DNA of 5,387 bases from a virus (lineage: Duplodnaviria; Heunggongvirae; Uroviricota; Caudoviricetes): IMG/VR virus record IMGVR_UViG_2645727555_000012; one strand, written 5' to 3'. Positions 1,746 to 4,687 of the stretch are shown here, in pieces. A program made the translations under genes and the position numbers. The notes beneath the pieces were generated by a model. It was given only the letters and a program-made list of their open reading frames with translations, did not search any database and had not been told where the DNA came from. How positions within the stretch are numbered: position 1 is the first letter of the stretch; every line of letters begins with the position of its first letter.

Positions 1746-4687
1746 AAACGGGGGCTGAAGCCATCCGCGCACTGGCCACACAGCTCCCGGTGTTTCGTCA
1801 GAAACTGAGCGACGGCTGGTATCAGGTACGGATTGCCGGGCGGGACGTCAGCACGTCCGGGTTAACGGCGCAGTTACATGAGACTCTGCCTGATGGCGCT
1901 GTGATTCATATTGTTCCCAGAGTCGCCGGGGCCAAGTCAGGTGGCGTATTCCAGATTGTCCTGGGGTTCGGCAGCCAGCAGGTGAGCCGTAATTATCATC
2001 TTCGCGGGCGCATTCTGCAGGTGCCGTCGAACTATAACCCGCAGACGCGGCAATACAGTGGTATCTGGGACGGAACGTTAAAACCGGCATACAGCAACAA
2101 CATGGCCTGGTGTCTGTGGGATATGCTGACCCACCCGCGCTACGGCATGGGAAAATGTCTTGGTGCGGCGGATGTGGATAAATGGGCGCTGTATATCATC
2201 GGCCAGTACTGCGACCAGTCAGTGCCGGACGGCTTTGGCGGCACGGAGCCGCGCATCACCTGTAATGCGTACCTGACCACACAGCGCAAGGCGTGGGATG
2301 TGCTCAGTGATTTCTGCTCGGCGATGCGCTGTATGCCGGTATGGAACGGGCAGACGCTGACGTTCGTGCAGGACCGACCATCAGATAAGGTGTGGACCTA
2401 TAACCGCAGTAATGTGGTGATGCCGGATGATGGCGCGCCGTTCCGCTACAGCTTCAGCGCCCTGAAGGACCGCCATAATGCCGTTGAGGTGAACTGGATT
2501 GACCCGAACAACGGCTGGGAGACGGCGACAGAGCTTGTTGAAGATACGCAGGCCATTGCCCGTTACGGTCGTAATGTCACGAAGATGGATGCCTTTGGCT
2601 GTACCAGCCGGGGGCAGGCACACCGCGCCGGGCTGTGGCTGATTAAAACGGAGCTGCTGGAGACGCAGACCGTGGATTTCAGCGTGGGTGCCGAAGGGCT
2701 TCGCCATGTGCCGGGTGATGTTATTGAAATCTGCGATGATGACTATGCGGGGATCAGCATCGGCGGGCGCGTGCTGGCGGTGAACAGCCAGACCCGGACG
2801 CTGACGCTCGACCGTGAAATCACGCTGCCATCCTCCGGTACCACGCTGATAAGCCTGGTTGACGGGCAGGGGAGTCCGGTCAGCGTGGAGGTTCAGTCCG
2901 TCACCGACGGCGTGAAGGTGAAAGTGAGCCGTGTTCCTGACGGCGTTGCTGAATACAGCGTATGGGGGCTGAAGTTGCCGACGTTGCGCCAGCGCCTGTT
3001 CCGCTGCGTGAGTATCCGTGAGAACGACGACGGCACGTATGCCATCACCGCCGTGCAGCATGTACCCGAAAAAGAAGCCATCGTGGATAACGGGGCGCAC
3101 TTTGACGGCGACTTGAGCGGCACGGTGAATGGCGTCACGCCGCCCGCGGTGCAGCACCTGACTGCCGAAGTCACCGCAGACAGCGGGGAATATCAGGTGC
3201 TGGCGCGCTGGGACACGCCGAAGGTGGTGAAGGGCGTGAGCTTTATGCTTCGCCTGACCGTGGCAGCGGATGACGGCAGTGAGCGGCTGGTCAGCACGGC
3301 CCGGACGACGGAAACCACATACCGCTTCACGCAACTGGCGTTGGGAAACTACAGGCTGACAGTCCGGGCGGCAAATGCCTGGGGGCAGCAGGGCGATCCG
3401 GCGTCGGTATCGTTCCGGATTGCCGTACCGGCAGCACCGTCGCGGATTGAGCTGACGCCGGGCTATTTTCAGATAACCGCAACGCCGCATCTTGCCGTTT
3501 ATGATCCGACGGTACAGTTTGAGTTCTGGTTCTCGGAAAAGCGGATTACCGATATCAGGCAGGTTGAAACCACAGCCCGCTATCTTGGCACGGGACTGTA
3601 CTGGATAGCCGCCAGTATCAATATCAAACCGGGCCATGATTATTATTTTTACGTTCGCAGTGTGAACACCGTTGGCAAATCGGCATTTGTGGAGTCCGTC
3701 GGTCGGGCGAGCGATGATGCGGAAGGTTACCTGGATTTTTTCAAAGGCAAGATAACCGAATCCCATCTCGGCAAGGAGCTGCTGGAAAAAGTCGAGCTGA
3801 CGGAGGATAACGCCAGCAGACTGGAGGAGTTTTCGAAAGAGTGGAAGGACGCCAACGATAAGTGGAATGCCATGTGGGCTGTCAAAATTGAGCAGACCAA
3901 AGACGGCAAACATTATGTCGCGGGTATTGGCCTCAGCATGGAGGACACGGGGGAAGGCAAACTGAGCCAGTTTCTGGTTGCCGCTAACCGTATCGCATTT
4001 ATTGACCCGGCAAACGGGAATGAAACGCCGATGTTTGTGGCGCAGGGCAATCAGATATTCATGAACGACGTGTTCCTGAAACGCCTGACGGCACCCACCA
4101 TTACCAGCGGTGGCAGTCCTCCGGTATTTTCCCTGACATCAGACGGAAAGCTGACCGCTAAAAATGCGGATATCAGTGGCAGTGTGAATGCGAACTCAGG
4201 GACGCTCAACAACGTCACGATTAATGAGAACTGTCAGATTAAGGGGAAACTGTCAGCCAACCAGATTGAAGGTGATATTGTCAAAACGGTCAGCAAGTCT
4301 TTCCCCCGCACGAGCACTTATGCCAGTGGCACCATCACGGTAAGAATCAGTGATGATCAGAAATTTGACCGGCAGGTCATGATACCGCCAGTGTTATTCC
4401 GCGGTGGTAAGCATGAGAATTTCAACAGTAATAACCAACAGTCATACTGGTATTCAACCTGCCGGTTAAGAGTGACCCGCAATGGTCAGGAGATTTTTAA
4501 GCAGTCCACGACGGATGCTCAGGGCGTATTTTCCTCAGTTATAGATATGCCTGCCGGACAGGGGACGCTGACACTGACATTCACCGTATCTTCATCAGGA
4601 GCGAATAACTGGACACCAACAACCAGTATCAGCGATCTGCTGGTTGTGGTGATGAAAAAATCCACAGCAGGTATCAGTATCAGCTGA
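1643..4687 (+). CDS. In-frame fusion of tail assembly protein I (N-terminal ~108 aa, ubiquitin-like domain) with host-specificity / central tail fibre protein J (from about lambda J residue 227 to the C-terminus); probable deletion derivative
   Basis: Continuous 1014 aa ORF. Residues 1-108 ([49 protein letters not shown]...[12 protein letters not shown]) match the gpI N-terminus. From residue 109 ([36 protein letters not shown]...) the sequence matches gpJ from about residue 227 onward. The arithmetic fits: 108 + (1132 - 226) = 1014. A GAGAGG Shine-Dalgarno lies upstream at 1626-1631. Could alternatively be typed as a pseudogene; kept as CDS because the frame is intact. Confidence 0.82.

Follow-up and report, generated by a model that had tools for sequence, protein, structure and literature searches.

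A probable OmpC-docking allele of the J receptor-binding domain, of the A8/phi330 type, in a lambdoid tail-tip block with an in-frame I::J deletion

We found that the C-terminal end of the J reading frame in this lambdoid tail-tip block, at positions 4235-4684 of the window (the whole stretch of 5387 bases that was analyzed), matches the A8/phi330 allele of the Ig-like receptor-binding domain (RBD) of J, which would dock on OmpC and not on LamB. The cassette that carries this allele is shuffled among lambdoid phages, and in the present copy a deletion of 1086 bp makes it probable that the RBD is not deployed. To this reading, taken as a whole, we give a probability of about 0.9. The identity of the module, its domain, the boundaries of the cassette and the deletion were established on the window itself, while the dependence on OmpC was taken from the literature on near-identical sequences.

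The window contains the following genes, all on the plus strand:

2-298, +, 3' part of gene M
298-996, +, gene L
1002-1745, +, gene K
1643-4687, +, I::J fusion ORF of 1014 amino acids, with the Pfam domain Lambda_tail_I at residues 14-97 followed by J domains
4754-5353, +, lom, encoding an Ail/Lom outer-membrane protein (PF06316, 392.8 bits)

The nearest genome to the window was that of a prophage in E. coli O39:NM strain F8704-2 (NZ_CP050998); apart from a segment of 1086 bp that is missing from the window, the two sequences are 99.95% identical, the differences being at three aligned positions only (245, 2377 and 4501). The lom gene is of the 434/phi330/2H10 type and not of the lambda type, its product being 97.5% identical to the Lom protein of phage 434 and about 97% identical to that of phi330, versus 47% for lambda Lom.

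When the window was compared with lambda (NC_001416) by BLASTN, positions 1966-4234 were 95.1% identical, the similarity stopped after 4234 and it resumed only at 5226, within lom. The stretch that diverges from lambda extends to about 5225 because lambda lom is itself unusual (47% identity at the amino acid level, as against 97.5% for 434); the RBD cassette proper ends near the J stop codon. At the protein level, in bins of 50 residues, the identity to lambda J was 88-100% throughout the body and fell to 40-59% over the final four. The last 158 residues run from NVTINENC (ORF residue 857, nucleotide 4211) to the end of the protein, i.e. window positions 4211-4684. From NVTI onwards, 71 of 153 residues (46.4%) were identical to lambda J, the LamB-binding allele (residues 975-1132), with indels in the loops, and 73 of 155 (47.1%) to J of phage 434, whose C-terminus is an OmpC-binding allele; 25 of the 27 residues that precede NVTI were identical to lambda. 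The length of the region was similar to that of lambda, indels occurred only at four loop positions, and the framework motifs DMPAGQG (DMPAGRG in lambda), LTFT and the GIS terminus were retained, the ORF ending in STAGISIS.

The GC content falls to 47.5% at 4225-4687, from 57.7% in the J body and 56.5% in the whole window. The abruptness of the break and its coincidence with the drop in GC content point to a recombination boundary and not to drift. In its own right, the low GC content of the cassette also fits a separate evolutionary history of this module.

The original prediction, made from the sequence alone, had described a lambda-like J body followed by about 150 divergent C-terminal residues, and had placed this region at 4225-4687. 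Both statements agree with the alignments: the interval essentially coincides with the mapped cassette (4235-4687), and the anchoring motifs (DMPAG.G, LTFT, the GIS terminus) and the similar length that it reported are present. It had also named an identity above 90% to the lambda J C-terminus as the outcome that would overturn it, and the value obtained was 46.4%. Its description of the gene as a J homologue has to be amended, since it holds for the J body and C-terminus and not for J as a whole: the ORF joins residues 1-108 of I to residues 227-1132 of J.

An additional observation concerns the lambda-like body. A 32-residue peptide of lambda J around F924 has been reported to trigger HepS, a prophage abortive-infection nuclease (PMC13043305). 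The corresponding stretch of the window (3992-4087, lambda J residues 902-933) is identical at 32 of 32 residues, and the window J is thus predicted to activate HepS.

The features mapped within the C-terminal module are the following:

4235-4687, +, divergent receptor-binding cassette, about 151 codons at the end of J together with the stop codon, delimited by the end of the lambda BLASTN match, the identity to 434 and phi330, and the GC content
4310-4321, +, short loop TSTY, equivalent to T918-Y921 of phi330 (TNSY in A8 gpJ and phage 2H10)
4313-4684, +, Pfam domain Ig_GpJ_C (PF12421), ORF residues 891-1014, 123.8 bits for a cutoff of 26.2
4415-4444, +, hairpin equivalent to E953-S962 of phi330, with residues identical to phi330 and to 9wca_J
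4499-4501, +, Lys codon AAG where the relatives have AAT (Asn), due to G for T at nucleotide 4501, i.e. Asn1071Lys in full-length J
4601-4618, +, ANNWTP, equivalent to A1015-P1020 of phi330, with residues identical to phi330 and to 9wca_J

Comparison with two other phages delimited the cassette from both sides. With phage 434, divergence was confined to about 4225-4700, and the flanking J body and lom were 92-100% identical. With phi330, the identity at the DNA level was 50-78% in the J body as far as about 4150 and rose to 96-100% from there onwards. These opposite patterns indicate that a module of about 0.5 kb moves independently of the remainder of J. As judged from the alignments, the data support the view that a receptor-binding cassette has been swapped at the C-terminus.

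The position of the domain in the protein is that of an RBD. In the Pfam analysis, the order of the domains was Phage-tail_3, Ig_J, Ig_J_second, Phage_Tail_Tip and Ig_GpJ_C, the last one being located at the extreme C-terminus, behind the FNIII/Ig and tail tip fibre domains. The fusion ORF could be aligned to residues 226-1131 of lambda J in PDB 8iyk. In lambda, the RBD is an Ig-like unit whose four bottom loops enter the LamB lumen, and the binding of LamB spreads the J trimer and triggers the opening of the tail tip (PMC11101478). In view of this structure and of the 189/195 identity to PDB chain 9wca_J, we infer that the RBD of the window would adopt a trimeric Ig-like fold with four bottom loops engaging a porin. 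In the proposed mechanism, the J trimer at the tail tip would dock on OmpC, a trimeric porin, and not on LamB, and receptor binding would then, by analogy with lambda, open the tail tip. The RBD module of about 0.5 kb would be a recombination cassette exchanged among lambdoid phages.

The assignment of OmpC is based on three independent lines of data on near-identical sequences, namely phi330, the A8 chimera and the PDB entries of A8 gpJ. The first one concerns the Stx2a phage vB_EcoS_phi330 (PV189401), with whose J protein the last 158 residues are identical at 157 positions, the sole difference being Lys in the window for Asn in phi330. Among 54 Keio outer-membrane mutants, phi330 gave lysis zones on 53; it did not plate on the exception, the BW25113 ΔompC mutant, and plating was restored by Plac-ompC re-inserted in the chromosome (PMC12502783). 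In that work, OmpC dependence was attributed to J by an AlphaFold3 model and not by genetics of J (PMC12502783). According to the model, the E953-S962 hairpin points into the OmpC barrel and A1015-P1020 (ANNWTP) contacts the OmpC rim, while no contact is predicted for the T918-Y921 loop (PMC12502783). Both hairpins with a predicted OmpC contact are identical in the window.

In the phi330 genome, the side tail fibre (stf) region downstream of lom (5194-6777) is annotated as short ORFs of 324, 990 and 309 nt. Such short ORFs suggest a fragmented stf gene, which would make J the likelier source of the OmpC dependence of phi330.

The genetics of J for OmpC dependence comes from the work on the A8 chimera (PMC11338833). 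In A8 gpJ, the lambda protein carries the C-terminus of a naturally occurring gpJ (Brodel et al., Nature 2024, PMC11338833), and delivery was assayed with MG1655 ΔlamB ΔompC cells carrying ompC on a plasmid (PMC11338833). Delivery by A8 was about 90% with both the MG1655 and the EDL933 OmpC proteins, and of the 23 OmpC variants, 21 permitted efficient delivery by A8 and another chimera, 1A2, taken together (PMC11338833). The PDB chain 9wca_J, named "A8 gpJ 713", matched ORF residues 595-1014 (E = 6.8e-274), differing from the window at six of the last 195 residues and at three of the last 158 (155/158). The J RBD of phage 2H10 was likewise identical at 155 of 158 residues. The published A8 DNA (PMC11338833 supplement) aligned to window positions 4117-4687, with apparent mismatches that are mostly machine-reading noise from the PDF text. 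Furthermore, according to the molecule names of PDB entry 9wcb, A8 gpJ713 is accompanied there by three OmpC chains ("Outer membrane porin C"). No publication citing 9WCA or 9WCB was found in a literature search, and literature searches likewise returned no receptor data for the PhiR (ECOR) phages, 2H10, Chlobot, YYZ-2008 or CP-1639. A paper on Gifsy-1 J and OmpC was set aside as a source on the window allele, as Gifsy-1 J is compared there with lambda J only (18% C-terminal identity).

The window RBD is therefore nearly identical to domains with an experimentally assigned receptor (phi330, 157/158; A8, three differences). The proposal of a non-LamB receptor in the original prediction is borne out by these modules, which depend on OmpC and, in the case of A8, work without lamB. 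The same match takes away its novelty, as a J protein of known receptor (phi330, A8; OmpC) closely resembles the window, and the equivalent of the graft onto lambda J that it had suggested is already published as the A8 gpJ chimera (PMC11338833).

Could the domain still bind LamB, its divergence from lambda being the result of neutral drift? Its fold family is that of lambda and its framework motifs are conserved, but it is only 46% identical to lambda with indels at the four loop positions, and the sharp breakpoint and the GC shift favour cassette exchange over drift. Above all, A8 gpJ delivers in ΔlamB cells and needs OmpC (PMC11338833). We rejected retention of LamB binding, to which we give a virtually negligible probability, as contradicted by this published result. 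Another possibility is that the substitution at J residue 1071 (N981 in phi330, D1070 in lambda) shifts the specificity to another porin or another set of OmpC alleles, to which the two L1-loop differences from A8 might add. This substitution is private to the window, since none of the phage or complete-genome records has it, and no record identical over the module was found, the best phage reaching 99.4% and the best complete E. coli genome 99.8%. In favour of such a shift, lambda J has been reported to gain the use of OmpF by single substitutions in its RBD (cited in PMC11101478), and A8 and 1A2, both OmpC binders, accept different OmpC alleles (PMC11338833). However, residue 1071 lies outside both hairpins predicted to contact OmpC, phi330 has the TSTY loop of the window and uses OmpC, and one change in a conservative context among 158 residues seldom alters the receptor. 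A shift of this kind is very unlikely.

This OmpC-type module is widespread. In a set of 5,426 complete E. coli genomes, the 463-bp interval was present in 713 records with at least 99% identity and in 796 further records with 95-99% identity. At 95% identity or more, the module was also present in 44 phage records, including many Stx1a/Stx2a converting phages; named phages among these 44 are CP-1639, YYZ-2008, 2H10, Turner, Chlobot and three PhiR phages. Related alleles were found at about 81%, 77% and 61% amino acid identity, the 434 and lambda types being at 44-47%. The A8/phi330 allele is among the commonest J tips in E. coli prophages, Stx phages included.

What sets the window apart from these relatives is the structure of the ORF upstream of the cassette. 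An in-frame segment of 1086 bp (362 codons) that its relatives have is missing from the window, the gap falling between 1966 and 1967. At the junction, residue 108 of I (...VFQIVLG) is joined to residue 227 of J (FGSQQ...), with a microhomology of one base only. Missing from the fusion are residues 109-223 of I, its C-terminal half, and residues 1-226 of J. Neither an intact J N-terminus nor a separate complete gene I, as in a functional lambda-type tail tip, is left in the window. All phage and genome matches to the whole window were split into at least two alignment pieces, owing to the 1086 bp that are absent from it. None of the phage records and complete E. coli genomes searched has the junction, exact-pattern scans of the collections of genome, viral and metagenome contigs did not find it either, and a look-up of the exact fusion protein gave no record. 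The missing J residues form the N-terminal end, before the fibre domains. In lambda, gpJ is described as a baseplate hub protein, with hub domains that precede the FNIII domains and the central fibre (PMC11101478).

The deletion, which fuses gene I to J codon 227, may be biological or an assembly artefact. If it is real, the RBD would sit on a protein without J residues 1-226 that is probably absent from a functional tail; this prophage copy very probably cannot assemble a tail tip, and its RBD would be idle. We consider it somewhat better than an even chance that the module is an inert relic in the present copy, tail-tip assembly being blocked by the I::J deletion, which is compatible with an OmpC specificity of the allele. 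The loss of 1086 bp, with the C-terminal half of I and J 1-226, from a prophage otherwise 99.95% identical to its nearest relative argues for this, and a junction seen nowhere else is expected of a recent private lesion. On the other hand, the deletion is in frame and the rest of the window shows no further decay, with three substitutions only; the gap could stem from assembly or processing of the sequence, and the cassette could still be put to use through recombination with other lambdoid prophages of the same host. It is very unlikely that the I::J fusion is expressed with a trimeric OmpC-binding tip, for instance as a decoy or exclusion factor, or that N1071K alters the OmpC alleles recognized, as we found nothing in support of either.

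The RBD allele and its OmpC receptor are already in the public record, together with a PDB entry of A8 gpJ713 and OmpC, and the sole unusual feature of the locus is the private I::J deletion. For annotation, J genes with the barrel hairpin sequence followed by ANNWTP and STAGISIS can be labelled as OmpC-targeting, and for the window copy the annotation should mention the I::J deletion from which it derives.

Among known systems, A8 gpJ is close to the window in its RBD (155/158), in both hairpins with predicted OmpC contact and in a lambda-like body up to the same region, and its allele is OmpC-dependent, LamB-independent and, by the molecule names of 9wcb, solved together with OmpC. It differs by TNSY for TSTY, by N1071 for K and by three residues in the fibre just upstream; furthermore, A8 is an engineered protein of full length, and the first 226 residues of J are missing from the window copy. 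The J protein of phi330 shares the RBD (157/158) and is followed by a lom of the same type (97% amino acid identity), but before about 4150 its body shows no more than 50-78% DNA identity, and it has N at the K1071 position. The reverse is observed for phage 434, whose J body is 96-100% identical in bins and whose lom is 97.5% identical, while its RBD is 47% identical with other loop lengths. As the receptor of 434 J is OmpC, these are different alleles reaching the same porin. Finally, the lambda J RBD (PDB 8XCJ/8XCK) belongs to the same Pfam family, likewise follows the central straight fibre and has the same framework motifs, but it is 46% identical, differs by indels at all four loop positions and has LamB as its receptor.
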